Source: Escherichia coli | GTDB taxonomy: Bacteria; Pseudomonadota; Gammaproteobacteria; Enterobacterales; Enterobacteriaceae | Length of the DNA: 64,000 bases | Strand: one strand, 5' to 3' | NCBI RefSeq assembly: GCF_003790525.1 | Contig: NZ_CP033636.1 | Shown here: piece by piece, positions 7,768 through 57,540 of the stretch | Layout of the letters: the number at the start of each line of letters is the position of its first letter | Numbering within the stretch: position 1 is the first letter of the stretch | The notes under the pieces: model-generated | The model's input: the letters and a program-made list of their open reading frames with translations, nothing else | What the model was told of the DNA's origin: nothing | Databases searched by the model: none | Translations under genes and position numbers: made by a program

Positions 7768-10188
7768 TTACTTCAACTCGTCGATCTGAATCATGAATTC
7801 TGAGGTGCCAACTTTCCCATTTTCGGAAGGATAAACGGGTAACAGAAGATTATCCCCCTGGCCCATATCTATTTGCACCTCAACTGACTCGCCTGGAGCC
7901 GCCTGTGCCCCATTAAATTTAATACCGAAGGCTGCATCCTTCCGCACAGTCAGCGTTGCGTTCTGGACCCCTTTAGCAATTTCTCCATTTGTCTTACGCA
8001 GAACGTTAGTGGACAGGTACGCAAGTGGTACGCCATCTGTCGTTTTGAGAGGTGAACTGACCGACAATGTGCGTAGATTATGTAACTGCACAAGGTTATT
8101 CGGTAGATAACTGAACTTCTGAGTATAGGTTTTGGTATTCGACTGACTATCGGCAACTGTTACGCTAATTGAATAATTTTCAGATGGTTCGAAATTTGGG
8201 AACAGCCTCGGATACTCAGGCATGTATGTATCTTTGCCTGCCGGTGACCACGTAAGCTCAACGTTATCAGCTGTGGGGCCACCTACGAGCTGAAGACGGG
8301 TTATCCTCGGGGTTGTCAGATTATCTGCCAGAGCGATCCTGAGGTTCTCCAGGCCGTACACTACCGTATCGTCTTTTACCGGCTTTCCGTCGAATGTTAT
8401 GGCCACTGTCGGAGGAGTGTTATCCAGAGCAATTTCTCCGAAAGTTTTATTGGTCTGGTTCTGGAAGAAGTCCCTGATGTTGACCTCAACGTTGTATTTT
8501 CCTTCAGACTGACGGGATAAATCATAAGCAATCGTGTAGTTACCTGAGATACGAGATTTGATTACGCCTGTTGGTGACATCCGGGTACCGGTGTTCTTAT
8601 CGGAAAGATAAAATTCCCTCAATGAGACCGAGTCGAACCAGTTACCATCGCCTTCAAGTGACGCCAGTACATCCAGCTGCTTGTTAGTCTCGTCATATGA
8701 TATCGAGTTTATTACCGGCAGTTGTTTATTGTTCCAGCGTGTCATAATCCATTGCTCAGACCGCAAAATGGGATTGCTGATGCTGCGAACGAAGTAAAGG
8801 ATTCTATTGTAGCCCTGGGTACCCAAGGCCATATCAAACGTCTCAGGCGCTTCACACGAGGTTTTTCCTGCCGGAATGGTGCAGGTCGCCTTACCGCCGA
8901 TCTCCTGTGCAAAGGGCCGGGCTTCAACGTTAAAACGAAGTCGGGAAATTTTAATTGGCAGTCGTGATGAAGCCACACTCTCAAAATCCTTCCACTTAAC
9001 CCAGTTCCCCTTATCATCGAGGAAATCTACCCAGGTACCCGCAAATGCAGGCGTTTGGTTTGCAGATGGGTTTAGAACGAGGCTGTATGACGGATAATAC
9101 CCTCCCCACTGGCCAAAGTTCGCCATACGAGCCATATCCCCATTAATTGAGCCATAGGGAAGAGTCATTTCAACATAAGCATAAGTGCTGTCTACAGCTA
9201 TCTCTTTGGGGGCGGAATATTGATTGATGAACTGAAGCCCACCTTCTGAATAAGCACGGTAGTTAGATTTTGGGATCCGGTAGACTAATCGAATAGGGTT
9301 TTCGTTAACGACCATACCGGCTTTGTAAGCCGGATAATTAGAAACCCCGGGTACGACGCTGGAAGACGTATTTGGATCATGAACGGCCCACAGTGTCATC
9401 TCACCCAGCGTGTTGTCGTAGCGAAATTTTTGAGTTGGCAGCGTTCGGCTATTACCTGCGTTATCGAAGATAACAACTTTTGCAGTAAAGTCTTCATCCA
9501 GGTTGCTGTCTGGTATTCCGGTTCCCTTAACTGAATTCTTAGAGTAAGTGTGGTACATCTTTTGGCCGGATACGTCATACTGCATCTGTGTAGTGCTGTA
9601 GAGGCTACCGTCCTGCCTGTAAATATATATTAGGCCCTTATCAATACCATTTGCATCACTTACGCCCGAAGAGGTGAAGTCATACTGCCCCGTTGCCTCT
9701 AATCCAAGCTTCCACACGTCACCAGCGGTAGAGCCAGAACCAGTATTAGCGGTAAGAGCATTTGCCGCTGGAGGGGTGACATCAATTAGCCAGTTATAGT
9801 TATAGGTCGCTACAGGCTTCTGATTGAGATCTAACACGTTTATCTGAACGACAAATTTGCCTTCACCCAAAGCAGGCAAAGTTACTTTTTTGCCGTAGAA
9901 CTCACTACCGTCAGCAGCTGTTAGTCGGTCTGATACACCCGTCCGTGTAGTCGTAGTATTAAGAATGACAGTTCCAGTGTCTTTCGTGACTTTGACATTA
10001 ACGAAACGATCAAGACCTGAAATAAGTGTCAAAGTTACCGGTGATGCCGGATTAAGCATAAGACGAGAAGACGGGGCGTGGATCTCAATACCGTTCGTGT
10101 CCTTAAAGGCCGATTCATATATCTGAGCTGGGGCCTGAACAGACATACCGAGTCCGGCTACAGCAGTAATAAAAGCGAGATGTTTCAT
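7768..10188 (-). CDS. secreted large Ig-like-domain protein, paralog B
   Basis: 806-aa ORF; signal-peptide-like N-terminus MKHLAFITAVAGLGMSVQAPA; motifs IDVTPP and LDNTPPTVA; C-terminal block FSYLPNNLVQLHNLRTL...TVRKDAAFG shared with paralogs. Confidence 0.6.
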   Translation of the reverse strand: MKHLAFITAVAGLGMSVQAPAQIYESAFKDTNGIEIHAPSSRLMLNPASPVTLTLISGLDRFVNVKVTKDTGTVILNTTTTRTGVSDRLTAADGSEFYGKKVTLPALGEGKFVVQINVLDLNQKPVATYNYNWLIDVTPPAANALTANTGSGSTAGDVWKLGLEATGQYDFTSSGVSDANGIDKGLIYIYRQDGSLYSTTQMQYDVSGQKMYHTYSKNSVKGTGIPDSNLDEDFTAKVVIFDNAGNSRTLPTQKFRYDNTLGEMTLWAVHDPNTSSSVVPGVSNYPAYKAGMVVNENPIRLVYRIPKSNYRAYSEGGLQFINQYSAPKEIAVDSTYAYVEMTLPYGSINGDMARMANFGQWGGYYPSYSLVLNPSANQTPAFAGTWVDFLDDKGNWVKWKDFESVASSRLPIKISRLRFNVEARPFAQEIGGKATCTIPAGKTSCEAPETFDMALGTQGYNRILYFVRSISNPILRSEQWIMTRWNNKQLPVINSISYDETNKQLDVLASLEGDGNWFDSVSLREFYLSDKNTGTRMSPTGVIKSRISGNYTIAYDLSRQSEGKYNVEVNIRDFFQNQTNKTFGEIALDNTPPTVAITFDGKPVKDDTVVYGLENLRIALADNLTTPRITRLQLVGGPTADNVELTWSPAGKDTYMPEYPRLFPNFEPSENYSISVTVADSQSNTKTYTQKFSYLPNNLVQLHNLRTLSVSSPLKTTDGVPLAYLSTNVLRKTNGEIAKGVQNATLTVRKDAAFGIKFNGAQAAPGESVEVQIDMGQGDNLLLPVYPSENGKVGTSEFMIQIDELK

Positions 10189-13311: not shown

Positions 13312-13808
13312 AGACAACTTTTTCAAAAATTATATACTTAAAGCAGGGGCTAATATGCGCAAGAAATGAATTTAGGAAGGATGGCTTCAAATTTAACTTT
13401 TTGGTTTTTTATTTTAGACGGACTTTAAAATAGCATCGCTGGTAAAATAATAAACATGGTTTATTTTTTGTTTGTATTGACAATCAAATGGGTAAAAATT
13501 AATTTACTTACATGGCGTATATTTAATGCCACCGTCCCGGCGGCACCGGGCATAAAAGGAAAACCATCTTGAAACCAATGCTCAAAAAAGATTTTTTTTC
13601 AGCTATTGAAAACCTTCTCAAAGCTGGCTTTCAACCTCGCTTTTACACTGTTAACAGTGGACGAATCGGTCTCATTACATTCACTGATAAAAATGGAACA
13701 AAACAGGTCCCGCCGGGCAGAAAAGAAAAACATTAAAATTAGCTATTTTCCCGAAAAGATCTCGAACACTGAAAAAGTATCATGGGGAACCTGATCAGGA
13801 GACAACCC

Positions 13809-16199
13809 ATGAAAATCAAACTAGCCCTGCTTATTGCATTTGCAGGTTTCAGCGCAGGAGCTTCCGCTGAAATCGCAGAATTCAGCTTTAAAGATACCCT
13901 GAACGTTAAAAAGACCGTATCGCCTGCATCCGTATGGATTAATCCGGTAACGAGCTTTGACGTTGCCGTTATTTCCGGTCTGGACCGTTATATTACGCTC
14001 AGTCTGCTGAAAAGTGACGGGAGCCTCATCTGGAGCACGAAAAGCAGCCTGGTTACCGTAGATGACCGTACCACATCTTCGACAGGCTTTGATTATTACG
14101 GCAAGACTCTGACCGTACCAGCGATGGGAGAAGATAGCTTCACCCTCAGAGAGGTGATTACCGACTTGCAAGGGAAGGAGGTCTCCCGGCAGGATTACCC
14201 GCTTGCAATTGACCGAACGCCTCCGGCAACGGGTACCATAAGTTATACGAGAAACGGGTGGAACTTTGGCAGCGAAGCGATCTTCACTTCAGTACCAGCC
14301 GGTATGCAGTACGCCAGCGTCCAGGCACTGGTCTTTAATGGACTGAGTGATAAAGGTTCCGGGCTTGCTAATGCTGAATATTTCATAACCGATGCCGCTG
14401 GAGTGGAGCGTAAAAAGCCAGCGGAAATTAATACAGTGGAAGGTAGCGTAACCGTTCAAGTCGCCGACGCAAGCAGCAATGCCCTGGCACCGGAAAACCG
14501 CTCTGAATATAAAGTGGGGATCTACCTTTATGACAAAGCGGGAAACAGGATCGAACTAAGCCGCCGAAGCGTAATTGATCGGGTTAAGCCTGACGATATC
14601 ATCCAGGTGCAGGACGCCACTACCGGATCATGGGTCACTTATCAGTCTGGCATGACCGTCTTCCAGAACCCTATTTCCGTACGGGTATTAAGGAAAAAAA
14701 GTGACTTTACTGCTGTTAACGGTTCCAAATATGGCTGGGCGGACTCGAATTTCCAGACGTCCGATAGCACTTATAATATTTATACTTTCAAATACATATA
14801 TCCCAATGTGGGGGATACTTATCATGAATTCCAGACTCTGGCAGGAGGAGTAAGACGAATTCATCATAACTCCCTCAACTTCACTCCAGCCCCGGCGATG
14901 GAAATAGCCCCGAAGATAGTGGCTAAAGAGATGTACCGGAGTGATACCAGTGAGTGGTTAACTCAGGCCTCAATCAGCGTTAAAACCGCCACCATTAGCC
15001 GCATAAAGGTAACCGCTGAACCCCGACCATACGTGCAAAAGTTCAGAACGGTAAAAAATGCAGCCTGGTTCTGCACTATACCTATCGGACAAAGTTCATG
15101 CGAGATGACGGTTAACTTCAACTACACCAGTGACAAAGGATTTGAGTATCTGCACCTTTACTCGGGAAAAGATGGTGACAGCATATTCGATGCGCTTGCT
15201 GGTAATTTTACGGTTATCTGGGATAACAACCCACCGGTGGTTAATGTCGCTCAGGTAAACAAGGCCTCCAAGACAATCACTATGACGGCCACCGATAATG
15301 ATCGCGTCAACGCCTGGAACATCAGCTACTGGGATACCAAAGTTTTCGAAGCCACCCTTAAAAATGCCCGGGGGGAACCTTTCACGCTGAAGCCTGTGAC
15401 CGTCAGTGAAAGCGATTATAAAACCAAAAACGCCACCTTCTCATACGCTGGTCTACCGGACGGGGATTATACGGTGGTTAGCGTCTCTGCCACGGATCTT
15501 GTTGGAAACACCGGAACCAAAACGCTTAATGCACCGCTGAAAATTGACTCAACGCTTCCGGTTATCGCGTTCAGTTTTAATGGCGCAGACGCAGAAGGAA
15601 AACTGGTTAAAGGGCTTGAGAACCTTCGCATAAGCGTTACTGATGCCTCTGGGGATGCTTCCCTGACATCGCTTCAGCTCGCTGGTGGACCTAACTCTGA
15701 AAAGGTCACCCTGGCATTCACGCCGTTATCCAAGGATGTCTTTATTCCGGAATACCCCAGAATCTTCCCCAACACTGACGAATCGGGACAGATGTATCAT
15801 CTGGAGGCACTGGCTATTGACGAATCAGGTAACCGGACCACTAAAACGCTTAATTTTACCTACCAGCCTGCGAATCTGATTATGCTGGATAATCTCAAGA
15901 CGCTGGCCACAGCCGTAGCACTGAAAGCAACGGACAACACGCCGCTGGCCATCATCCGAACCAGTGTGTTGCGGCGTCAGGACGGTTCTATCATTACCGG
16001 ACAGTTAAACGGAACCCTGACTGTTCAGAAAAATGCCCAGTTCGGCGTTACGGTTGCCGGAGTTACGGTCCAGCCTGGTGAAACTAAATCGCTGTCACTG
16101 GATCTTGGTAATGGTGAAGAGCGCACGTATCCCGTTACTCCCGCTGTAAGTGGTCAATCTGGCACGGCCACATTTGCTATAGAATTCCCTCAAACATAA
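13809..16199 (+). CDS. secreted large Ig-like-domain protein, paralog C
   Basis: ORF 13782..16199; likely start at MKIKLALLIAFAGFSAGASA (13809); motifs IDRTPP and IDSTLPVIA; C-terminal block FTYQPANLIMLDNLKTL...TVQKNAQFG shared with paralogs. Confidence 0.6.
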   Translation: MKIKLALLIAFAGFSAGASAEIAEFSFKDTLNVKKTVSPASVWINPVTSFDVAVISGLDRYITLSLLKSDGSLIWSTKSSLVTVDDRTTSSTGFDYYGKTLTVPAMGEDSFTLREVITDLQGKEVSRQDYPLAIDRTPPATGTISYTRNGWNFGSEAIFTSVPAGMQYASVQALVFNGLSDKGSGLANAEYFITDAAGVERKKPAEINTVEGSVTVQVADASSNALAPENRSEYKVGIYLYDKAGNRIELSRRSVIDRVKPDDIIQVQDATTGSWVTYQSGMTVFQNPISVRVLRKKSDFTAVNGSKYGWADSNFQTSDSTYNIYTFKYIYPNVGDTYHEFQTLAGGVRRIHHNSLNFTPAPAMEIAPKIVAKEMYRSDTSEWLTQASISVKTATISRIKVTAEPRPYVQKFRTVKNAAWFCTIPIGQSSCEMTVNFNYTSDKGFEYLHLYSGKDGDSIFDALAGNFTVIWDNNPPVVNVAQVNKASKTITMTATDNDRVNAWNISYWDTKVFEATLKNARGEPFTLKPVTVSESDYKTKNATFSYAGLPDGDYTVVSVSATDLVGNTGTKTLNAPLKIDSTLPVIAFSFNGADAEGKLVKGLENLRISVTDASGDASLTSLQLAGGPNSEKVTLAFTPLSKDVFIPEYPRIFPNTDESGQMYHLEALAIDESGNRTTKTLNFTYQPANLIMLDNLKTLATAVALKATDNTPLAIIRTSVLRRQDGSIITGQLNGTLTVQKNAQFGVTVAGVTVQPGETKSLSLDLGNGEERTYPVTPAVSGQSGTATFAIEFPQT

Positions 16200-16633: not shown

Positions 16634-17104
16634 ATGACCAAATATTATGATCGCAGTGGAATTGAAATCTCCAGCGCAAAAATCCGCTGTGTTGATTCTG
16701 TAAAAGGTACTGCGGAATATACTTTTCGTATTCTTTGCGATAAATGCAATGGTCGGGGAGAGCGTAAGCATTTTTATAGAAGTCGCTGTATGGCTTGTAA
16801 AGCCACGGGTTACAGCCTCGAAACGACCCGCACTGCTTACACGCTGAATGCGCTGTACCGCATTAATGCTCAAGCTGCCCGCAAAGTGTCAGCATCCTTG
16901 CAAAACGAGCGTTTGAGGACTGAAAACGCCCACAACTCTGCGTTCAATGCATGGTGCAGATCTCATCAAAAAATGGTTGATGCAATCACCCAGCAATCCA
17001 GCAGTAATAATTTTCTGGAAAGCCTTAAGTCTTCTTTAACCCACCAGCGTCAGTTAAGTGATAAGCAGCTGGCAGTCGCCGCCCGCATTTTAGGGATTCA
17101 TTAA
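16634..17104 (+). CDS. hypothetical protein with CxxC...CxxC zinc-ribbon-like motif
   Basis: 156-aa ORF with RBS ggagg; CDKCNGRG...CMACKATG cysteine pairs; immediately upstream of the HigB-like gene. Confidence 0.5.
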   Translation: MTKYYDRSGIEISSAKIRCVDSVKGTAEYTFRILCDKCNGRGERKHFYRSRCMACKATGYSLETTRTAYTLNALYRINAQAARKVSASLQNERLRTENAHNSAFNAWCRSHQKMVDAITQQSSSNNFLESLKSSLTHQRQLSDKQLAVAARILGIH

Positions 17105-17153
17105 TTCAAAGCCCTTTTAATTTAATTTTAAGGTCAATTATTACGGAGGAACT

Positions 17154-17450
17154 ATGATCCATTCATTTAAAGACAGACGGCTTGAAAAGTTCTTCCGTAA
17201 TGGAAAAACAACGGCAGGTATTCCTTCTGAAATTATTAACGCGATTCTGTGTCGACTCGAAACGCTGGATAATGTCCAGAGTGAGCGGGAGTTATTATCC
17301 AACAGCTTGCGTTATGAACGCTTAAGAATGACGTCAAACCGTTATTCCTCCATTCGAGTAAACTCTAAGTATCGATTATTCTTTGAATGGAATGATGGCG
17401 CACATAATGTCCATTTGTCAGCACATGACTATAAATCGCTCATCCATTAA
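17154..17450 (+). CDS. higB: HigB-like toxin (RelE/ParE superfamily, killer-protein family)
   Basis: 98-aa ORF; MIHSFKDRRLEKFF...SIRVNSKYRLFFEWNDG...HDYKSLIH matches the HigB pattern MIxSFK...L..F...R...RL.F...D.....DYH. Confidence 0.55.
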   Translation: MIHSFKDRRLEKFFRNGKTTAGIPSEIINAILCRLETLDNVQSERELLSNSLRYERLRMTSNRYSSIRVNSKYRLFFEWNDGAHNVHLSAHDYKSLIH

Positions 17451-17692
17451 GGTTAAAAATGAAGCTATTTTCAATTTCATCCCGGGATACAAGCATGGAC
17501 GCGATGTTTTATATCCAGGCCAGTACTAAACAATAGGCAAGTTACATATTTAGTACCCTTTCCCCGAAGCCTACTGCGAACTGCCAGCTTACAGATTTGC
17601 AGAATGAGACGGTCGTCCCTTCCATAAGCCCTATTTCGCTTTCACTTAACCCCTGGTCGATCAATTCCCAGTCCCGAACCCGGGAATTGAGT

Positions 17693-18640
17693 ATGGCCAC
17701 GCATGGTCTTAACCTGATCTGTGCAGTCACGGATGAGCATACCCGTCAGATAGTAGACTTTTGCGATAACCTTGGACAGCAGCTTAAGGATCCGGACGAC
17801 AAAAGCGCCTGGGTTAAGCTCATTAATTCTGAATGCGCATTGCTTAATTCTCCGCGTTTATATCCCGTTCTGCTGGAGCCGGAGACACCGGCACAATTTG
17901 AAATCTTTGTGCCAGCTCCGGAAGATGGCGATCACGACACGGTTATAGCCAGCGTTGTTGAAGAATGTTTCGGAGATGAATGCCGGTACAGAGCAACGGA
18001 CAAAGCTTTTGCAATGTCGGAAAAGCCAATCATCAGGCTGGAAGCACATTTCAATGACAAACGGGAAAAGGTTTTAGAACTGACCTTTTCCAGTTTCAAC
18101 CTTTCACTTTCTGCGTCCGTGTATGAACACCAGCTACGTCAGATTTTATTACTTTGCGAAGATTTTGGCGTAAGGCTTCAGGGTAGAGCCGGGGCATCCT
18201 GCCACATCAATATGCGCAGCGCTTACCGTCGTCTTGCACATGTCGGCACCGGCTCTCGCCCAGGTGATGGGAGTGATGTGCGGGGCTATACCTCATCTAA
18301 AGAGCAAAAAGATGTTAAGGGGCTGCTCGATAAGTCAACCAGGGGAAGTGAGCTTGTACCGGCGAGGCACGGGCAGCAGTTTAACGGTGTCTTAGTGAAT
18401 GCCACACCCGCACCGGCCACGACGGGTTTTATATACCTGTCGCATGATTTTCCGGAAGGCCAGTTTATGATGACAGCCGAGGTGTTGCATGTTGGAATAA
18501 CACCGGGCGGGATCTACTACATTGAAACACTGGACGGATACCGGTTTATCGTTACAGCGTTTGAAAAGGGATTAATGAACGGTTTAAGGGAGTTTTTGGC
18601 TGTAAATGAGGACTACTTTAAGTATTACCGCTGGTCTTAG
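17693..18640 (+). CDS. hypothetical protein downstream of HigB-like gene
   Basis: ORF 17597..18640; an internal Met at 17693 is a plausible start; no HTH antitoxin signature seen. Confidence 0.4.
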   Translation: MATHGLNLICAVTDEHTRQIVDFCDNLGQQLKDPDDKSAWVKLINSECALLNSPRLYPVLLEPETPAQFEIFVPAPEDGDHDTVIASVVEECFGDECRYRATDKAFAMSEKPIIRLEAHFNDKREKVLELTFSSFNLSLSASVYEHQLRQILLLCEDFGVRLQGRAGASCHINMRSAYRRLAHVGTGSRPGDGSDVRGYTSSKEQKDVKGLLDKSTRGSELVPARHGQQFNGVLVNATPAPATTGFIYLSHDFPEGQFMMTAEVLHVGITPGGIYYIETLDGYRFIVTAFEKGLMNGLREFLAVNEDYFKYYRWS

Positions 18641-19047: not shown

Positions 19048-19425
19048 ATGAAAACGTTAGACGTGATTTCAACTCAACTCAACTTTAATAATCTGCTGAA
19101 TCAGGCAGGATATAATCTTTCAGAAATTGTTGTTAAACGCTACAGCGCTGCACCCGCCTTTAACGAAGGGCACTGGTTGTTCATTGCAGAGCAGGATAAT
19201 CGCTACATTGAAGTGGTCAGTCTTCTTTCAAAGGCATCAGAAAGCGGAGAGCAGCATGTCGATATCTTTATCAATATGTTCGAAGATCCGATTGATGACA
19301 TTATCTCACGAAACATTGAACCCAAAACATTTGCGACACTTTATAAATACATTGAACGTATACCTTTTACACCGGACGTAAAAAAAGAATTCTTGAGCAG
19401 TATTGAGACTATTAATTTTAGTTAA
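19048..19425 (+). CDS. hypothetical protein
   Basis: 125-aa ORF with RBS aaaaggagg. Confidence 0.5.
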   Translation: MKTLDVISTQLNFNNLLNQAGYNLSEIVVKRYSAAPAFNEGHWLFIAEQDNRYIEVVSLLSKASESGEQHVDIFINMFEDPIDDIISRNIEPKTFATLYKYIERIPFTPDVKKEFLSSIETINFS

Positions 19426-19451
19426 CTAAAAATTACAGATTTTCTTTCACC

Positions 19452-19489
19452 AAGTTATTAGGTAATGATATCGACCTGGTATCATTACC
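19452..19489 (+). promoter_or_regulatory. island promoter module variant with embedded inverted repeat
   Basis: caagttattagg then 19 bp then tatcat; the spacer contains a perfect 10-bp inverted repeat ggtaatgata / tatcattacc. Confidence 0.45.
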
Positions 19490-19519
19490 GTATCATGAAT
19501 ATGGACGGGGACGGGTAAA

Positions 19520-19948
19520 ATGCCTAATAATACTGAAGTCATTAGCTGCGACTTATTTTCAATTCTTTCCTCACTTAATTTTAGTGTTGAGGATATTACA
19601 GGGCTAACTCCGGCCAAATTCAGAAAGGGGGCTTTCTTGCATGCAAAAATATCTGCAAGCCAGGCCACGCGAGCAGCTGATATTTCCCTTCAATTACTCA
19701 CGGATCGTGTTTCAGGTGAAATGAACTACGTAATAGTAATTGGCAGGCACGAAGGGCTCCTGCAAAGCGAAGCAATTGACCCAAACGCTGATAAGCAGTA
19801 CCGGGAAAACCGTCATTCTCGCCATTTTATCCCAGTAACCGATGCCAATACCAAAGCCCTGAAAAAAACCTGCAAGGTAATGAAAACATATATCAAAGAG
19901 CAGGCATTTAAGCCTAACACCTGGGGGCACAATTTCATTAAGGGTTGA
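19520..19948 (+). CDS. hypothetical protein
   Basis: 142-aa ORF; a GC hairpin (ttgccccgg tgaa ccggggcaa) follows at about 19953-19974. Confidence 0.45.
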   Translation: MPNNTEVISCDLFSILSSLNFSVEDITGLTPAKFRKGAFLHAKISASQATRAADISLQLLTDRVSGEMNYVIVIGRHEGLLQSEAIDPNADKQYRENRHSRHFIPVTDANTKALKKTCKVMKTYIKEQAFKPNTWGHNFIKG

Positions 19949-20012
19949 TTTATTCTTGCCCCGGTGAACCGGGGCAACGCTAAATTAACCTCAACCTGAG
20001 CTGGAGGCACAA

Positions 20013-20270
20013 ATGTCTGAAAAACACTTTATCGTAAAGATCCAGAACCGTAACGGCGACCATGAGAAAAGCTATGTTCGTATACTCGTCAGCGATTGTG
20101 AGAAAAATGCTTGCCAGACGGCACTGATTTCCGAGTGTGCTGGCGAGGTTGAACAGCTGAGTTTTGAAGACGGTGGGGTTTATGACTACAACGGCGAAAA
20201 TCACTACAGTGTCAGGAGCTGCGTGGAGGTTGCCCCTGAAGATGTTGCAACTTTGCAACGCTACCTTTAA
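20013..20270 (+). CDS. hypothetical small protein
   Basis: 85-aa ORF with RBS ctggagg. Confidence 0.45.
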   Translation: MSEKHFIVKIQNRNGDHEKSYVRILVSDCEKNACQTALISECAGEVEQLSFEDGGVYDYNGENHYSVRSCVEVAPEDVATLQRYL

Positions 20271-20413
20271 CACCTGCGGCATTAAAAAAAATATCGGGTG
20301 TCTGTTACAGGATGCCGCTGTTTTAAACGATGCCTCAAAGATCGCTATCGCTCCTGATGCCTTCATTAAGAGCGGGTTTGTGGTAGGTTCAGCGTAACAA
20401 AACTACTGGAATT

Positions 20414-21034
20414 TTGGTTGCCTCGATGAAGAGCTGCTTTTCTGATTTACCCGTTAAAGACGGCAAGTCCGGAACTTGGAAACTGGACACTTTCGAAATT
20501 ACCACAGATAAGGCGCTGACCCTCGCCCTTCGTGCCGAGTGTACTGGTAATACAGATGAGTTTATCCCGCCCGGTAGATATCGCCGCTTGTCCAACGGCT
20601 GGGATGTGGTGATGTCCAATACCCCGATGGAGATCCGAACCTGCCAGGATTTTATAGAGCGAGCCACCGGGCGGGTGCTCATTAATGGTCTTGGTCTTGG
20701 TATGGTGCTCCACGCCATTCTTCAGAAAGACGATGTAACCCATGTCACGGTAATCGAAAAAGAACAGGATGTTATTAACCTCGTTGCAGCCTCGTTTGCA
20801 ACCGATCTTCGCGTTGAAATTATTAATGCTGATGCAATGGAGTATTGTCCACCAGCTGGCGTTACGTACAACGCTTGCTGGCATGACATATGGACAGACT
20901 TCGCAACAGCTAATCTCGCACAGATGGATAAGCTGGAAAGTAAGTACCGGGACATCTGTGACTGGCAGGGATCGTGGGGCAGGGAGGAGTGTGAGCAAAA
21001 GCTCATTGAGTTCCAGAATCTTGAGGCTGATTAA
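20414..21034 (+). CDS. possible small SAM-dependent methyltransferase-fold protein
   Basis: 206-aa ORF; glycine-rich VLINGLGLGM followed by an acidic strand (VTVIEKE), resembling methyltransferase motif I; weak. Confidence 0.3.
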   Translation: MVASMKSCFSDLPVKDGKSGTWKLDTFEITTDKALTLALRAECTGNTDEFIPPGRYRRLSNGWDVVMSNTPMEIRTCQDFIERATGRVLINGLGLGMVLHAILQKDDVTHVTVIEKEQDVINLVAASFATDLRVEIINADAMEYCPPAGVTYNACWHDIWTDFATANLAQMDKLESKYRDICDWQGSWGREECEQKLIEFQNLEAD

Positions 21035-21202
21035 TCCAACTTGCGAAGGTGTCTCCGCTAAAGGAGCCCGGCTCGCTCTGTGCAAGCCCAGCTGTGCTGC
21101 ATGATTTGGCAAAGTCTTCAACAAACCAGATCGGTCTGATTTAGTAATCTCACTTCCAACCATCAGGCCGATATAATAACTGTATCCCCATTAGGATGGC
21201 TG

Positions 21203-51226: not shown

Positions 51227-52307
51227 GAAAAAGAGCTAGCCTCTGATCGTGATTGCAATAGTTGTTACGCCACATCGTCGGGATACCCAGGAGCCAGTGG
51301 TACTGTTTAGGTATGATTTGGTCGATGAGGCTTAACTCCGCCAGTTCTTTATGCTCTGCGCTTTTCCACTCGATCTGTCCCACATCAGGAACAAATACAG
51401 CGGTCCTTACTTTTGCGGCCTGGCGGGAAAATTCTATAAAGTTGATGCCCCACGGCGTCCAGTATCTGTACTGCTCGTTTAGGCCGATGTTAAACACCGG
51501 CAGAGAAAGAGTTGAGTCGGCAAAAGCCGAAATCACATTTTTGCAGACTCTTGGACTATCTATTTTTTCCTGTTCGGTTTTGAGATGAGTCAGCAGTGCA
51601 CGGTCAATAATGCTGTTAAAGGTGTTTGTATAAAGGCCATTAGGGTCAGGAAGCCGATCTATGGCAGTAATGATTTTAAATTTTAACCGAGAAAGAAAGG
51701 GAGAGTCCTCAATAGTAACTATATGACTATGTGTTGTTTCTGGATGAATCTGGGGTTTGATGCGCTGTACTTGTTTAAAAGAGACACTACCTGGCAAATT
51801 AATGAATGCGCCCACCGTGCGTGTCAAATCGACGAAATAAGGCAAAAGATAACAACCAAGCATACGGGCATTCTTCTTTACAAGATCACACCGTTCGTCA
51901 TTGTTATCGAAAGAAATACGGAAACTAACGAATTTACGTTCAGGACCTTCGCTGGTGGTCAGCGATTGAATCCATTCATGGCATGAACCTTGTGGTACCG
52001 ACCAGTAGCTGGTTTCACGGTCCCCAAAGGGATCAGTCGTGATCAACTCTCCCTTTAAAAGGAAAAGCTCAGACAGGGTATTTGCCATGGAGAATAGGGA
52101 ATCGATATCGTTGCTCTGACAAAATTTTCCCAAATGATGAAACGCGTTTTTTTCTATCTTAGTTAGCCGATCTCGAACTTCCTGAGAATCTGCGTACTTT
52201 AAACCCAAAGACTGAAAGCGCCTTTTTACGAGCGAGCGACATTTGCTGACTTTTAGTGCAGAGCTTAAAATTTGCTGGCGCGTCAGGACAATTTTTTCAT
52301 CCATCAA
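51195..52307 (-). CDS. hypothetical protein
   Basis: 370-aa ORF overlapping the coupling-protein stop by 4 bp. Confidence 0.45.
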   Translation of the reverse strand: MMDEKIVLTRQQILSSALKVSKCRSLVKRRFQSLGLKYADSQEVRDRLTKIEKNAFHHLGKFCQSNDIDSLFSMANTLSELFLLKGELITTDPFGDRETSYWSVPQGSCHEWIQSLTTSEGPERKFVSFRISFDNNDERCDLVKKNARMLGCYLLPYFVDLTRTVGAFINLPGSVSFKQVQRIKPQIHPETTHSHIVTIEDSPFLSRLKFKIITAIDRLPDPNGLYTNTFNSIIDRALLTHLKTEQEKIDSPRVCKNVISAFADSTLSLPVFNIGLNEQYRYWTPWGINFIEFSRQAAKVRTAVFVPDVGQIEWKSAEHKELAELSLIDQIIPKQYHWLLGIPTMWRNNYCNHDQRLALFREWRESNGCG

Positions 52308-54388
52308 TGAAACTTCCTTAGAAATTTATTAAGATTTTTGATATCGAGATTTTGACGCAAAGTAACTTTTCCGGCCTTCTTGAAAAGCATTTCCGACAGA
52401 GTTGTGTTTGGCTTCATTTGTTTCTCAGCAACAGCAATAGGGATTTGGCCTACAACCTTCCTGCCATCTTGAAGCCTGGCAACTATGTGAAACATAGGGA
52501 CCTGACCCAAGAGATCCTTTGGAATACTCTCTTCTAAAGTTGTCTGCTTTCTTTCTGAGATTGAACCTGAGAAGTTATTATGCGGCAAAGATGTTTCTGA
52601 ACCGGTCGTATAAGTGACCATATTTGTGCTTATCGCACTCTTACCAAAGTTCTCTACAACAAGCGTCTGAGTAGGAGTATCGTTGACTCGCAAGCTTATA
52701 TAATTGTTGCAGAGCCCCGTAATTCGATTGGCAGTTTCAACACTTGCCGCAGCAATAAAGTCGGAGATGGTTTGGGTGCAAATAAACAGTGCAATTTTCG
52801 CTGCACGACCCTGCGCCAGAAGGTTAATCATAGGGTTGTTAATGGCTGAGTGTGCCTCATCAACAAAAATACTTATCCTGGAATTAGCTGACATATCACC
52901 ATCCTGAGCGTTGTAGCGACTACCGGCACAGGAGGTCAGATCTGACATTATTAATTGAGAAATAGCAGCTGCTGTATCGGGGTTTGAAAGGCCATCAAGC
53001 GAAATGTATAGCACCCCGCCAGTGCTGAACATCCCTTCGCTTGTTACAATTTCTCTTGATGATACTGAGTTCGGGTTAGGAGATAAAAGCTCATTTAAAG
53101 GTTTTTCAATGAGCATATCGAAAACAGGCATAATACCTGCGGTCATTTTAGCCATATGCTCTGGGTCGGACATTGAGTAATCAATAAGCTGGGAAACAGT
53201 ATCTAACCAGTCTATTTGTTCGGACCCCTCGTAATTCATGAAATGAGCCGTAAACCATTCAGCGAGACGCTTGAAACGTACCGGCAAGGTTTCGTTAGCG
53301 ACGTACTTAACTTTTTCGGTCCAGACATCGTAACCATAATATCTCGCGTAACATGACTCCATTACCTTGACTGTAAGATTCACAATAGACATGTGGCTTT
53401 TCATGTTCTTGTGAATCAGATAAATAGAAGGCTTTTTCTCTATGTAAGAAAGCCCGGAAATCACATTGGAAACGAGAGCCTTGGCATACTGAACGAATGG
53501 GTTAACCTCACCGGGAACTGTCACCAAGCTCAAAAGACGAGATGTTAGGTCAGAAACATTAGTATAGGTGTTGCAGACATCAATACAGACCGAAGATGCT
53601 GGCTGGCCAGGATGAAATTTATAGAAAGGAAGACCGAGGGTCTTAGCCTCTTCCATTAGAGATTCTCGCCACTCTGCATCGTTCTTTGGATCTATGACAA
53701 CAACAACATGACCAAGATGAAGCATGCTAATGCTTAGTAAACGCTGTAGCACCGTTTTCCCGGTACCCACGTTTCCGGTTATCAGAGTATGACCAAACCA
53801 ATTGTCTTCAGTTACAAATATGGGTTCCCTACGTTCCACAGCAAAAATTGCATTGCTGCCGCCCATCTTACGAGCCATTGCGTCAAAATGTCTCTTAATT
53901 GGGTTGAAGACGAATGGCAACTCGATCTCACGTTTATCACTGGAGAGGTTAGCTATTTGATATGCCCGATCCGCATGTTCCGGGCCCCACTCAAACCCAT
54001 CACAAAAATAGGACTTTCGCTCGGGTATATCCTTATTTTTATTTTGATAATCCTGAACCAGTTGACGATACTTTCGCTCATTGGAGAAAAAGTTACTTTT
54101 GTTAATTACACGCAGTGAATCAAGACTAACGAACATGAAATGTCGCTTGAATACACGCCAATGAGCCATCAAGAATGGCGCTGCTGTTTTGCAACGATAA
54201 AGGCACAGCAAAAAAAGCAATATTGAGGTGAACAGAACTATTGGGGCGATGTCCAGTCCGTCTGAAGAAAGTCCCATATAAAGCATAGAAACCGAACAAA
54301 TCAAAAGTATTGAGGCACTACGATACTCAAGAATAGGCCGATAAAAATTCTCTTGTGCATGGAGGTTAGTCCTCTTCGAATCTGACAT
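52304..54388 (-). CDS. type IV coupling protein (TraG/TraD/VirD4 family)
   Basis: 694-aa ORF; two N-terminal membrane helices; Walker A GNVGTGKT and hydrophobic strand VVVVIDPKND; adjacent to the relaxase. Confidence 0.7.
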   Translation of the reverse strand: MSDSKRTNLHAQENFYRPILEYRSASILLICSVSMLYMGLSSDGLDIAPIVLFTSILLFLLCLYRCKTAAPFLMAHWRVFKRHFMFVSLDSLRVINKSNFFSNERKYRQLVQDYQNKNKDIPERKSYFCDGFEWGPEHADRAYQIANLSSDKREIELPFVFNPIKRHFDAMARKMGGSNAIFAVERREPIFVTEDNWFGHTLITGNVGTGKTVLQRLLSISMLHLGHVVVVIDPKNDAEWRESLMEEAKTLGLPFYKFHPGQPASSVCIDVCNTYTNVSDLTSRLLSLVTVPGEVNPFVQYAKALVSNVISGLSYIEKKPSIYLIHKNMKSHMSIVNLTVKVMESCYARYYGYDVWTEKVKYVANETLPVRFKRLAEWFTAHFMNYEGSEQIDWLDTVSQLIDYSMSDPEHMAKMTAGIMPVFDMLIEKPLNELLSPNPNSVSSREIVTSEGMFSTGGVLYISLDGLSNPDTAAAISQLIMSDLTSCAGSRYNAQDGDMSANSRISIFVDEAHSAINNPMINLLAQGRAAKIALFICTQTISDFIAAASVETANRITGLCNNYISLRVNDTPTQTLVVENFGKSAISTNMVTYTTGSETSLPHNNFSGSISERKQTTLEESIPKDLLGQVPMFHIVARLQDGRKVVGQIPIAVAEKQMKPNTTLSEMLFKKAGKVTLRQNLDIKNLNKFLRKFH
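52359..52369. repeat. AAAGTWACTTT palindrome copy inside coding sequence
   Basis: exact aaagtaacttt within the 3' end of the coupling-protein gene. Confidence 0.4.
54089..54099. repeat. AAAGTWACTTT palindrome copy inside coding sequence
   Basis: exact aaagttacttt within the 5' part of the coupling-protein gene. Confidence 0.4.
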
Positions 54389-57300
54389 TATAGGTTCCCA
54401 GCCTCTTTCAGGTTATTGATAATTCGTTCAATGTCCACTTTCGCCCGGTCTGATGCGGCCAGCAAAGTAGGCATGTTAAATGCATGGCATTTTGTATTGA
54501 TCACAGCACCAGAATTAACGAGGTACTGAGGAAGCTTATTGAAAAGATCTTGAGCCTCTAACTGCGACCCAAATTTTTCCACGCAAGATTGGGTCAGATA
54601 GAGAGTATTAGGAGTACTTACCATAAATCTGTTTTTGCGCTTTCTTTTAAACGCCACCTCCATTTTGGACAGAATTTGATGCAGTACTGACGCAATTTCT
54701 ACAAATTCAAGCTCTGTAACGTCACCTTCGCTTATAAGCGAGAATTCACCATTTTGGTCTGATTCAGTAGTTGCAAAGACTTTACTGTTCAGATTGTGAC
54801 CAGAAACAGGTGATGCTGGTTTTTGTACTTCTGCTTTGTCCGATGATTTATTCCGGTTGCGCTTGGGATTTTGTTTTTCTACCGGTGCTGTTGGGGCGAA
54901 CAGTCTGGCCAGTGCTGGCGAAAGATGATGCCCCTTAGCGTCTGTGGGCGCATGCTCTCCATTTGATTCTTCAAGTACAGGAGGTAAGGCGGGCTCTTCA
55001 CTTGCCATCACACTGGTTGCGGCTGCTTCGGTCTGGGAATACACAACTTCAGCTGGTGGTGGGCAGTTACCCTCAGTATCTGGTTCTGAGTTTTCTTGTC
55101 CTACAGAAACATCCATAGAGCGTTCAATCGTACCCTGGGGATCAGCGTTCTGTTCTCGGTTAAGTTCTGGTAATTCTGACGGCTCGGGGAGAAGCTTTTC
55201 ATTATGGACCGAAGAGCTTGTTGCACAACTACCGACTTCTGGCCGAGAAACACTAAGCTGTGTGAAATCGGTATAATCAATGATCTCATGCTCTTCATCT
55301 TCTTCCTCAAAAAGATGTTGATAATGTTCATATTCCACAGCCTCAGTTTTCAGCGGACCAGTCGCGGATGCACTATCGGTTCCATGATATTCCACGTCGC
55401 CAGAATGTTCTTCGACTGCATTTACACGTGGGGGAGGCAGCTCAAGCGTTTGCTTTGGACGTGGGGCAGAGTTTTCAACAGAAGACTCATCATTAATCAC
55501 TAATGCCTGATACATAGAAGTATTGAAAAGTGACTTTAAAGTTGTTGGCCTTCTTGGCTCATGATAGGTGAGCTGGAACCCGGCGCAGTTATCGCCGAGC
55601 TGGACTAAACGCAGATCGTCAATGTCCCTTACTATCCACATTCCATCGAGAGAGCCTTCTCTGAATGTCAGTTGGAAATAGGGCTCTTCACTAAATGCTT
55701 TTTCATCTAATCCCGGCAGCAATGCCATAGTGGCATCTATGTTGAGGTAGGGGACAGCATCTACACACACTATATAGTCATTGGAAAGTGGAGCGCTTAA
55801 AAGGAGTTCATGAAGTTGGTTGACCAGGACATGGGATTCCGTGTCCTTTGCCGATTCATCTTCACTTTCTTCTATATCAGGAATGACAGGATCAGCTGCT
55901 TCCTCACCCTCAGATTTAACTATCTGCGTGTCATTATCAATTTCATTATCACTTTCGGCTTTCTTCTCAAAATCGTCGGATGAGCCTTCATTTTTCTTAG
56001 AATGTATATCAACATCAATAGAGGCAGTGGAGCGGCCTAAATCATTAACCTTAAGAACAGCCGTCTCAACAGTATCAGTAATTTTAGTTATAGCGTCCCG
56101 ACCGGGCACTGGTCTTCTGTATTCAGTAACTGTTTTTTGCTCGTCAATGTAAATAAAGTCTTTATTGGCATTAACGCTAAAAAGACCCGGCACTGAGTCA
56201 GGGATTTTATAGGAATCAAAGATTAAACCAATCCACCTTAGCTTAAGAAGGTTATAGAATTCTAGTTTCCCTATCCCATTTCTAAAGATGTTTGATATTT
56301 CGTTTTCCGAATAGATACCCGGAATGAAGTAGTGAACGACACGCTCATCATCATAGGGCTCGACGTAACCACGTTGAACTAGGGATTCTACCAATACCGT
56401 CTTACCAGCCTCTCCCTGAGGGAAGTTATATTTATGTAATTCGAAATCATTGAGAACAAAATCAAGGAATGCGTTCTCGTTAAGGTATACCTCACCATTT
56501 ACGATAATGATGTGCATAGGCTTAGCATTGTAATTGTTGATATTGATACTGGTAAAGTTGTGCTTGATGGTACTAATGGCCCTTGCTGCTGCATCATTAG
56601 AACGCAGACCCATGATAGGGTCACGTAAAACATTAAGGTCTGTACCAGTAGAATAGAAATCAGCGGTCCTCACGCATTTAGACAAAAAGTCATTCCCATC
56701 AGTATAAACGTTTAGGGCGGTGATCATTTTTGAATAAACACGTTCTTTATTTACCCGATCCAAAAATGCAAGACATACCGGGTTTAGGATTCGCTCAAGG
56801 AAAACGCTGGACCAGATATTATGTTGATTATGAATACGCTTTCGCCAGTGGATTTCGTATTCAACCACGTCATTTTCACGTGCCCAGTCAAGAAGACTTT
56901 GTGAGCTTGGCGTCCAAATGATCGGACTAGCTAAATTCAGGCTTACAATATCGAGATCGTAAACCTTTCCGGCATCATGGACTAAACCACAGATAAACGC
57001 AGCATAGAGATATACTTTTCTACGGACTACTTCTTCATCTTGATATCCGATTGGTCTCAGTTCTGAGTGATGCGCATTTTTTAAAGAGAGTATGGCCACT
57101 TCCAGGCTGTGAGAAAGTAACCCACCAATACCATTATGATGATGATTTTCGGAAGCTGGCAAAAGATGTATCCAGCGAACATATTCAACCAAGGGCTTTA
57201 ATACTAAATTAGTAAATGTATATGCATCGTCCCTGATGTCGCTATCGCTGATAGCTAACATCATTGAAATTGAGTGCAGCTTTTCCCGATACAGAGACAG

Positions 57301-57540
57301 GATTGACTGTTCATTAAATGTCTGTATGCCCGTCGGACGAGTTGGATACTCGATGAATTTCAGGACTTCTGGATTTGGATGATCAGGAACAGTGTACTTC
57401 TGATCTCCTAGAATCTGCGCAAAAGGAGAGAGGCTTGATATATCCTCAATCATTACAGAGGTTGCATCATTCTCCTGAGATGAGAATATCCCCAAAATCC
57501 GTTTAATACATAAATACAGCGCCCTGAAATTCATCATCAT
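54388..57540 (-). CDS. traI: conjugative relaxase, MOBH-type (HD-domain)
   Basis: 1050-aa ORF; histidine triad ENHHHNG and HD motif VHDAGK as in MOBH relaxases; acidic central region; gene order relaxase then coupling protein. Confidence 0.65.
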   Translation of the reverse strand: MMMNFRALYLCIKRILGIFSSQENDATSVMIEDISSLSPFAQILGDQKYTVPDHPNPEVLKFIEYPTRPTGIQTFNEQSILSLYREKLHSISMMLAISDSDIRDDAYTFTNLVLKPLVEYVRWIHLLPASENHHHNGIGGLLSHSLEVAILSLKNAHHSELRPIGYQDEEVVRRKVYLYAAFICGLVHDAGKVYDLDIVSLNLASPIIWTPSSQSLLDWARENDVVEYEIHWRKRIHNQHNIWSSVFLERILNPVCLAFLDRVNKERVYSKMITALNVYTDGNDFLSKCVRTADFYSTGTDLNVLRDPIMGLRSNDAAARAISTIKHNFTSININNYNAKPMHIIIVNGEVYLNENAFLDFVLNDFELHKYNFPQGEAGKTVLVESLVQRGYVEPYDDERVVHYFIPGIYSENEISNIFRNGIGKLEFYNLLKLRWIGLIFDSYKIPDSVPGLFSVNANKDFIYIDEQKTVTEYRRPVPGRDAITKITDTVETAVLKVNDLGRSTASIDVDIHSKKNEGSSDDFEKKAESDNEIDNDTQIVKSEGEEAADPVIPDIEESEDESAKDTESHVLVNQLHELLLSAPLSNDYIVCVDAVPYLNIDATMALLPGLDEKAFSEEPYFQLTFREGSLDGMWIVRDIDDLRLVQLGDNCAGFQLTYHEPRRPTTLKSLFNTSMYQALVINDESSVENSAPRPKQTLELPPPRVNAVEEHSGDVEYHGTDSASATGPLKTEAVEYEHYQHLFEEEDEEHEIIDYTDFTQLSVSRPEVGSCATSSSVHNEKLLPEPSELPELNREQNADPQGTIERSMDVSVGQENSEPDTEGNCPPPAEVVYSQTEAAATSVMASEEPALPPVLEESNGEHAPTDAKGHHLSPALARLFAPTAPVEKQNPKRNRNKSSDKAEVQKPASPVSGHNLNSKVFATTESDQNGEFSLISEGDVTELEFVEIASVLHQILSKMEVAFKRKRKNRFMVSTPNTLYLTQSCVEKFGSQLEAQDLFNKLPQYLVNSGAVINTKCHAFNMPTLLAASDRAKVDIERIINNLKEAGNL

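Follow-up and report, generated by a model that had tools for sequence, protein, structure and literature searches.

In the HigB–HigA system of the Proteus vulgaris plasmid Rts1 (PDB 4MCT, 4PX8 and 4YPB), a plasmid-borne toxin–antitoxin (TA) module, the toxin gene comes first and is followed by a gene for a HigA antitoxin of ∼100 a.a. with a helix-turn-helix (HTH) domain of the HTH_XRE type. The catalytic residues of this HigB are His54, Arg73, Asp90, Tyr91 and His92, of which Arg73 is the transition-state stabilizer, Tyr91 the proposed general acid and His54 the proposed general base (PMC5027501). We analyzed a stretch of 64,000 nucleotides (nt) of an Escherichia coli contig (NZ_CP033636.1, assembly GCF_003790525.1; 'the window' below), in which a HigB-like gene lies in a cassette of three genes, all on the plus strand: gene 1 (16634–17104) encodes a DnaJ-type zinc-finger protein of 156 a.a., gene 2 (17154–17450) the HigB-family (RelE-superfamily) toxin homologue of 98 a.a., and gene 3 (17459–18640) a partner protein of 393 codons, whose reading frame is broken in this window by an amber codon (codon 26). 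What is new here is a lineage-specific nonsense mutation in the partner of a conserved, uncharacterized variant of a known system type.

The 98-a.a. protein resembles Rts1 HigB in its family (PF05015), its length class, ∼30% sequence identity and the retained equivalents of Arg73, Asp90 and Tyr91, and the locus shares the toxin-first order and the plasmid location. The two systems differ, however, in what follows the toxin (here an acidic protein of 393 a.a. without a detectable DNA-binding domain) and at two catalytic positions of the toxin itself, where His54 corresponds to Glu55 and His92 to Lys94, followed by the tail SLIH. Another relative is the toxin P0022 of a metagenomic pair (L014), with 38% identity, a Glu at the His54 position and the same SIRVN core; but P0022 has the canonical C-terminal DYH, and a canonical HTH_3 antitoxin of 98 a.a. 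is encoded 25 nt downstream. P0022 is the most distant HigB-family match of the homologue search that returned it, and the only match whose neighboring gene turned out to encode an ordinary HigA. Closer (44% identity, with the core SSIRVxSKYRLxFxW) is a HigB-like toxin of Klebsiella and Raoultella, which is likewise found on MOBH/MPF_F plasmids without a recognizable HigA (e.g. pKOX26_3), but has no zinc-finger gene upstream, ends in HAHA instead of HDYK, and is followed by unrelated proteins of 119 and 129 a.a. In Klebsiella oxytoca pKOX26_3 (L010, 2001–3044) this toxin has 103 a.a. and belongs to a sister clade found on several hundred Klebsiella plasmids; neither of the two downstream proteins has a family match, and the 129-a.a. 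protein is hydrophobic and probably a membrane protein. The Klebsiella MOBH clade may be a second non-canonical HigB arrangement.

Tripartite or zinc-containing modules are known within the RelE superfamily: the HigB1–HigA1–SecB-like chaperone module of Mycobacterium tuberculosis (a toxin–antitoxin–chaperone system) and MqsR–MqsA, which has a zinc-binding antitoxin. Like them, our cassette combines a HigB/RelE-type toxin with an extra conserved protein, and a partner protein has a zinc-binding module; unlike them, it has neither a SecB-like chaperone nor an HTH antitoxin, and its zinc finger is of the DnaJ type and encoded upstream. We detected no sequence similarity of the cassette proteins to MqsA or Rv1957.

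A preliminary description of this DNA, made from its letters alone, had recognized a HigB/killer-protein pattern in the 98-a.a. product at 17154, and database searches agree with it. The protein matches the Pfam family HigB-like_toxin (PF05015) with an independent E-value of 6.2e-18 (residues 4–88, model positions 2–88 of 91) and PHROG 3066 ('toxin of TA system') with an E-value of 8.9e-18, and it aligns with the solved chains of P. vulgaris HigB with an E-value of 7.5e-6; judged by these matches, the open reading frame (ORF) is a genuine HigB-family protein. The protein is basic (isoelectric point, pI, 9.7), and a Shine-Dalgarno sequence read from the DNA (GGAGG, 17145–17149) ends 4 nt before its ATG at 17154. 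In an AlphaFold2 (AF2) model of the toxin fused to the partner, the toxin part (predicted local distance difference test, pLDDT, 67–88) has a strand (residues 2–5), three helices (8–16, 25–40 and 44–49) and four further strands (54–56, 65–68, 73–80 and 83–90); this predicted succession of strand, helices and beta-sheet is what would be expected for the RelE/HigB fold.

Whether the active-site residues are retained, a point raised in the same description, has a divided answer: in the alignment to P. vulgaris HigB, Arg74 (HigB Arg73), Asp92 (Asp90) and Tyr93 (Tyr91) are kept, and the two histidines are replaced. Our family alignment has Arg74 in every member and Asp92 and Tyr93 in almost all; Lys94 is followed by only four residues. 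The position equivalent to His54 holds Glu in P0022 as well, and Lys in L004, the most distant cassette. Active toxins of the RelE family show little conservation of their catalytic residues; because of this variation, and because a Glu is present in the HigA-paired P0022, Glu55 and Lys94 do not show inactivation, and the active-site pattern leaves activity neither proven nor excluded. Between the IncHI2 and IncHI1 alleles, the ratio of nonsynonymous to synonymous substitution rates (dN/dS) of the toxin gene is 0.03–0.05 over the whole gene and ∼0.02 for residues 50–98, with synonymous sites near saturation, and the toxins are 85–90% identical against 61–66% for the neighboring genes. Alleles that vary in their N-terminal helices share a nearly unchanged C-terminal half (NSLRYERLRMTxNRYSSIRVNSKYRLFFEWxDGAHNVHLSAHDYKSLIH).

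No HigA accompanies this toxin. We read the three forward frames of 17450–17720 and found no ORF for an HTH protein or HigA, the sole long frame being the N-terminus of the partner; an antisense ORF of 62 a.a. and another ORF of 48 a.a. match no Pfam or NCBIfam family; a tblastn search of the window with a related HigA gave no match; and annotations from the NCBI Prokaryotic Genome Annotation Pipeline (PGAP) list no HigA or XRE gene in ∼67 kb around the locus of this ∼250-kb plasmid. The earlier observation that no HTH antitoxin lies immediately downstream is thus borne out for both strands of 17450–17700, and no standard HigA that it might have overlooked came to light. Since the defining HTH_XRE-type HigA was looked for downstream and is absent, the locus is not a HigBA system: going by its sequence, the 98-a.a. 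gene is a member of the HigB protein family that is not part of one.

What does lie downstream is larger than it first appeared. The preliminary description gave the downstream neighbor as a protein of roughly 315 a.a., which needs correction: the 315-a.a. ORF (17693–18640; WP_164846946.1, named 'flavin reductase' by PGAP) is only the part of a 393-codon gene that lies past a nonsense codon. Homologues of the '315-a.a.' protein have 381–394 a.a., and the full-length relatives that we read have 391–394 codons. Their N-termini (MKLF, MKLY or MKVY, e.g. MKLFGISSRD...) correspond to the ATG at 17459 in the window, 8 nt past the toxin stop, and the frame from there is open to 18640 save for a TAG at 17534–17536 (codon 26; Gln26, CAG, in relatives). 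The apparent '243-bp gap' after the toxin gene and the '315-a.a.' size therefore both result from a single nonsense mutation. The toxin stop overlaps the Shine-Dalgarno sequence of the partner (TAAGGT, 17448–17453), an arrangement in the DNA that suggests translational coupling. The 315-a.a. ORF is possible as a re-initiation product, and the gene has an alternative in-frame TTG start at 17597.

The amber codon is not a sequencing error, as 293 out of 1,022 PLSDB plasmids are identical to the window over the 61 nt around it (with no coding sequence called there). The remaining 729 differ by one base, and the three of these that we read at the site all have CAG. One plasmid with CAG, pSTM6-275, differs from the window at 3 of 6,179 aligned nt, with the toxin gene and the sequence upstream of it unaffected. 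The Gln26-to-amber mutation is recent in the lineage of the window. Annotation of this gene varies beyond the amber allele: partner starts are inconsistent across records (L001, L002, L006, L009 and L022), giving 315, 347 or 381 codons (one GenBank record has the full 393); product names include 'flavin reductase', 'flavin reductase family protein' and 'hypothetical protein'; and pSTM6-275 has the intact CAG allele yet is annotated with the 315-a.a. protein.

The order zinc-finger gene (155–169 a.a.), HigB-like gene (98 a.a.) and partner gene (391–394 a.a.) is kept in nine IncHI-type lineages: two IncHI2 alleles, IncHI1A, IncHI1B, and five lineages from assemblies (L004, L013, L019, L020 and L021). 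The most distant of them has an identity of 30% in the partner, 36% in the zinc-finger protein and 62% in the toxin. The intergenic gaps are 36–63 nt between the zinc-finger gene and the toxin gene, and 8–15 nt between the toxin gene and the partner gene (eight lineages, with the same or a similar junction). The flanks differ: a gene for an immunoglobulin (Ig)-like protein is upstream in some lineages and downstream in L019, a methyltransferase gene directly follows the block in L021, and a TacAT pair follows it in L020. In PLSDB the toxin (at least 60% identity) is found in ∼1,299 records and the partner in 1,303, with almost perfect co-occurrence. We left out the copy on pELE2-215, which is fragmented and apparently riddled with frameshifts. 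In L013 (1916–3106), a low-coverage (2.2×) metagenomic contig, the partner is split into ORFs of 127 and 258 a.a. in different frames, through either a frameshift error of sequencing or a further disruption of natural origin. The preliminary description had offered a non-canonical or fused antitoxin, a three-component module and an orphan or domesticated toxin as options; the evidence falls within the range that the non-canonical antitoxin, the three-component module and the domesticated toxin span, and the gene order kept in nine lineages speaks for a three-gene unit that is conserved. Around the putative operon, a scan for operator-like repeats gave one inverted repeat ∼300 nt upstream of the zinc-finger gene, an Rfam scan gave no match, and a promoter scan did no better than on shuffled sequence.

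The upstream gene had been described as encoding a zinc-ribbon protein of 156 a.a., which fits what we found: its product matches Pfam DnaJ_CXXCXGXG (independent E-value 9.8e-4), with one zinc finger made of two CxxC motifs (C35, C38, C52 and C55). All four cysteines are invariant in the nine lineages, and the protein has a conserved helical C-terminus (F..SL...L....LS.KQ..VA..IL). It also has weak NCBIfam matches to DnaJ and anti-TRAP, and matches PHROG 4046 (unknown function) with an E-value of 3.9e-12. With a dN/dS of ∼0.09 for this gene and ∼0.13 for the partner gene, all three cassette genes are under purifying selection.

The partner, which is acidic when intact (pI 5.5, against 9.7 for the toxin), is a multi-domain protein of an uncharacterized family. 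It has no match in Pfam (searched with the single sequence and with each member of a 21-sequence alignment), NCBIfam, PADLOC or PHROGs, and none of the three cassette proteins matches a defense-system model of PADLOC-DB at an E-value of 0.1 or below. A HMMER search of 1.84 billion representative proteins returned only few full-length relatives, the most divergent with 30% identity, and stand-alone proteins of 118–141 a.a. that match only partner residues ∼293–393. The AF2 model of the partner (pLDDT 77.8) contains several alpha/beta units and ends in a beta-rich domain, which is well predicted, and a helix. Foldseek found nothing in the PDB for this model at an E-value below 0.01, and in AFDB50 only its own family and uncharacterized proteins. 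We find no support for the PGAP name 'flavin reductase': the protein has no Pfam or NCBIfam match to that family at any threshold, and no fold match to the flavin-reductase/flavin mononucleotide (FMN)-binding split barrel.

The most conserved part of the partner is the beta-rich domain with the C-terminal helix (residues 299–393; 18353–18637, pLDDT 84–94). Its conserved motifs are PARHG, FNGV, NA, GQF, YIETxDGxRF and YRW, with the invariant residues concentrated in 299–366; the conservation map of the partner has no conserved set of acidic residues that would support a nuclease. The same domain is the C-terminal part of a 187-a.a. Vibrio plasmid protein. Since it is found on other plasmids without a HigB gene nearby, this domain, on its distribution, is probably not a dedicated binder of HigB or of toxins. 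Homologues of the domain are encoded on the Vibrio chagasii plasmid p1 (L025, 3935–5761), on a Teredinibacter plasmid (L026, 3965–4351) and in L005 and L015; the stand-alone genes sit in arrays of small ORFs on plasmids or on contigs resembling mobile genetic elements. In Vibrio a gene for a DNA cytosine methyltransferase follows after 10 nt, and several of the homologues match PHROGs 11960 and 2063 (function unknown).

Our leading, though tentative, interpretation, which we would put at somewhat below even chances, is that the cassette is a non-canonical toxin–partner module of the IncHI backbone, possibly with three components. The zinc-finger, toxin and partner genes would form one co-transcribed operon; the HigB-like protein would be a homologue of ribosome-dependent mRNA endonucleases, translationally coupled to a partner in the HigA position; the acidic partner would bind and restrain the basic HigB-like RNase, as a non-canonical antitoxin without a recognizable DNA-binding domain; and the module would serve plasmid maintenance or establishment. 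The generic layout of a type II TA module is present (adjacent and co-oriented genes, a spacing of 8 nt, and a Shine-Dalgarno sequence that overlaps the toxin stop). The partner sits where an antitoxin is expected, because the L014 relative has its HTH_3 HigA at the same position. Also in favor are the family match and the retained catalytic residues of the toxin, the purifying selection on all three genes, the opposite charges of toxin and partner, the co-occurrence of these two in PLSDB, and a trio that holds together where its flanks change.

Several observations weigh against this interpretation. Two of the five HigB catalytic positions are replaced (His54 by Glu55, His92 by Lys94), and the partner, in which neither a DNA-binding domain nor a known antitoxin domain is detectable, is with its 393 a.a. 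far larger than the familiar small type II antitoxins, which typically have ∼100 a.a. or less. Its most conserved domain also occurs alone on plasmids with no HigB gene nearby. The module is seen only in IncHI-type backbones, unlike typical TA pairs, which hop between contexts. An AF2 fusion of toxin and partner through a (GGGGS)6 linker, run on an alignment in which eight lineages were paired and further homologues unpaired, gave a predicted template modeling (pTM) score of 0.49 and no clear sign of an interface, the output being limited to pTM and pLDDT, without predicted aligned error (PAE) or contacts. In the same model the pLDDT of partner residues 1–30 rises only modestly, from ∼60 to ∼73.

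The natural disruptions of the partner also weigh against it. Besides the amber codon 26 of the 293 plasmids, the partner is split by an IS21 element (IS, insertion sequence) at about codon 258 in pS77-CTXM55-278k, loses ∼25 C-terminal residues to IS26 and ∼7 to IS1, and, from the amber codon position onward, is separated from the toxin gene by an ISKpn26 inserted just upstream of that position. The toxin (WP_000581857.1) is unchanged alongside these disruptions, and the comparison of the window with pSTM6-275 reveals no change besides the amber in or upstream of the toxin or zinc-finger genes. As 995 records have a toxin that is at least 99% identical, against 1,022 with the 61-mer of the amber site, by far the larger part of the amber plasmids must have an intact toxin. 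In a type II TA system, loss of the antitoxin beside an intact toxin would not be tolerated; the disruptions run counter to this, but the truncated partner products may keep function. Together these disruptions argue against a simple model with an indispensable full-length partner. Because the N-terminal (amber) and C-terminal (IS21, IS26 and IS1) truncations both coexist with an unchanged toxin, any neutralizing region would lie within residues 79–258, and the disruptions are compatible either with such a neutralizing core or with a toxin that is not lethal alone. The toxin is also disrupted in nature: in a sub-lineage of IncHI1 (>24 contigs) its last 13 residues, including Asp92, Tyr93 and Lys94, are replaced, and the partner ORF is intact. 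Contigs of this sub-lineage include L023 and L024 (2501–4072; GCA_028597755.1 and GCA_028597735.1); in L023 an IS with a DDE_Tnp_1 transposase lies directly after the shortened toxin gene and before the partner gene.

A more specific proposal, which we hold with less confidence, at perhaps one chance in three, is that the partner founds a new family of HigB partners without a known fold relative or a DNA-binding domain and, with the zinc-finger protein, makes up an IncHI-specific three-component module, present in every lineage examined, in which either end of the partner can be lost. The tolerated loss of either end points to a central neutralizing core or to a HigB-like RNase that has been repurposed non-lethally in plasmid establishment.

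Such repurposing is the best-surviving alternative, although we consider it rather unlikely. The HigB-like protein would be co-opted and non-lethal, still binding ribosomes or RNA, and would have a plasmid-specific role with the partner as its effector or co-factor; such a role might be anti-defense, or the tuning of host or plasmid gene expression while the plasmid establishes itself or conjugates. The commonness of partner-truncating alleles beside an unchanged toxin fits this well, as do the vertical inheritance of the module with the IncHI backbone (it is not seen elsewhere), a toxin better conserved than its neighbors, and the location in a long one-directional array of small genes with DNA methyltransferase genes. 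The variable general-base position (Glu or Lys for HigB His54) fits too, but it loses force from P0022, which has the same Glu and a normal HigA. The retention of Arg74, Asp92 and Tyr93 and the very low dN/dS of the C-terminal half are what an active RNase would show, and a gene so closely coupled to that of an acidic partner resembles a TA pair; these points speak against co-option.

Less probable again is a genuine three-component system with the zinc-finger protein as antitoxin, chaperone-like helper or transcriptional regulator and a separate role for the partner, analogous to zinc-binding MqsA or to toxin–antitoxin–chaperone modules; this would explain why partner truncation is tolerated. 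The zinc-finger gene is always immediately upstream (36–63 nt) in the nine lineages, even where the flanks are rearranged, and purifying selection acts on it. Zinc fingers of the DnaJ type serve to bind proteins (as in DnaJ and anti-TRAP), in keeping with the weak DnaJ and anti-TRAP matches of this protein. However, the protein is basic (pI 9.8) and antitoxins tend to be acidic, its phage homologues in PHROG 4046 have no annotated TA link, and no zinc-finger gene precedes the HigB-like gene of the Klebsiella MOBH plasmids.

We regard it as very improbable that gene 2 is a decaying remnant of an orphan toxin that lost its antitoxin and has no current function. The absence of HigA, a partner that is a pseudogene by annotation standards in the lineage of the window, and the IS that replaces the toxin C-terminus in the IncHI1 sub-lineage would suit a remnant, but a dN/dS of ∼0.04 (with synonymous sites saturated between the IncHI2 and IncHI1 copies), an ORF that keeps its 98 codons in each lineage examined and a strong Shine-Dalgarno sequence would not; the strong purifying selection and the near-invariant C-terminal half largely exclude it. 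Least credible of all is a standard HigA that escaped us as a short ORF in 17450–17700 or elsewhere in the window, as the frames read there, the 62- and 48-a.a. ORFs, the tblastn search and the PGAP annotations are all without one.

The window is an IncHI2 plasmid backbone: 2.5 kb around the cassette are 100% identical to many conjugative IncHI2 plasmids (IncHI2A, MOBH, MPF_F) of E. coli and Salmonella, with matches in 1,096 PLSDB records. In the IncHI2 records the three genes are labeled 'hypothetical protein', 'type II toxin-antitoxin system RelE/ParE family toxin', and 'flavin reductase' or 'hypothetical protein'. Two proteins of ∼805 a.a. annotated with Ig-like domains (DUF4165/Big_3 in relatives; 7768–10188 on the minus strand and 13782–16199 on the plus strand) flank a small divergent gene cluster shortly before the cassette; we take them to be RSP-type Ig-like proteins, which are reported to be needed for the conjugation of IncHI plasmids (PMC6764697).

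Downstream of the cassette is a one-directional array of small genes of no known function (19048–28021, plus strand), which includes methyltransferase and 3'-phosphoadenosine-5'-phosphosulfate (PAPS)-reductase-family genes. Among its products are a 206-a.a. protein (20414–21034) with weak matches to S-adenosylmethionine (SAM)-dependent methyltransferases, a 416-a.a. site-specific DNA methyltransferase (21203–22453; Mrr_N and N6_N4_Mtase in relatives) and a 794-a.a. PAPS-reductase-family protein (25637–28021), all on the plus strand. One may speculate from its layout that the array resembles a plasmid establishment or anti-restriction region. Farther on, ∼35 kb downstream of the cassette, is a putative Tra1/relaxase region, where two minus-strand ORFs of 694 and 1,050 a.a. 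(52304–57540) are assigned as TraD and MobH by ORF length, which equals that of the TraD coupling protein and the MobH relaxase of pKPC-272. The related IncHI2 plasmid pKPC-272 (L018) also has a canonical relBE pair (20189–20715), which belongs to the same array of small genes and lies ∼29 kb away from the cassette; ordinary RelE-family TA modules are therefore also present on IncHI2 backbones.

Published work names HigB or HigBA among the TA genes of IncHI2 plasmids, from annotation. A full-text literature search of incomplete coverage returned no functional study of the cassette and no mention of the toxin accession. Plasmids of the IncHI1 and IncHI2 types disseminate resistance to colistin, carbapenems and multiple drugs in Salmonella, E. 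coli and Enterobacter and are major carriers of mcr and carbapenemase genes, and the cassette, on ∼1,300 sequenced plasmids, is routinely listed as a 'RelE/ParE toxin' beside a 'flavin reductase'. A practical correction follows for current annotations, in which the start, length and product name of the partner are inconsistent. The natural CAG and TAG alleles, 3 nt apart in the 6,179 nt around the locus, offer a ready near-isogenic comparison. If the partner neutralizes the toxin, it would be a new family of large antitoxins without a recognizable DNA-binding domain, widening the range of HigB partners, and the module would be an IncHI maintenance function that could be targeted; if instead the toxin has been repurposed, nature would here provide a clear case of an RNase of the RelE family that has been domesticated.

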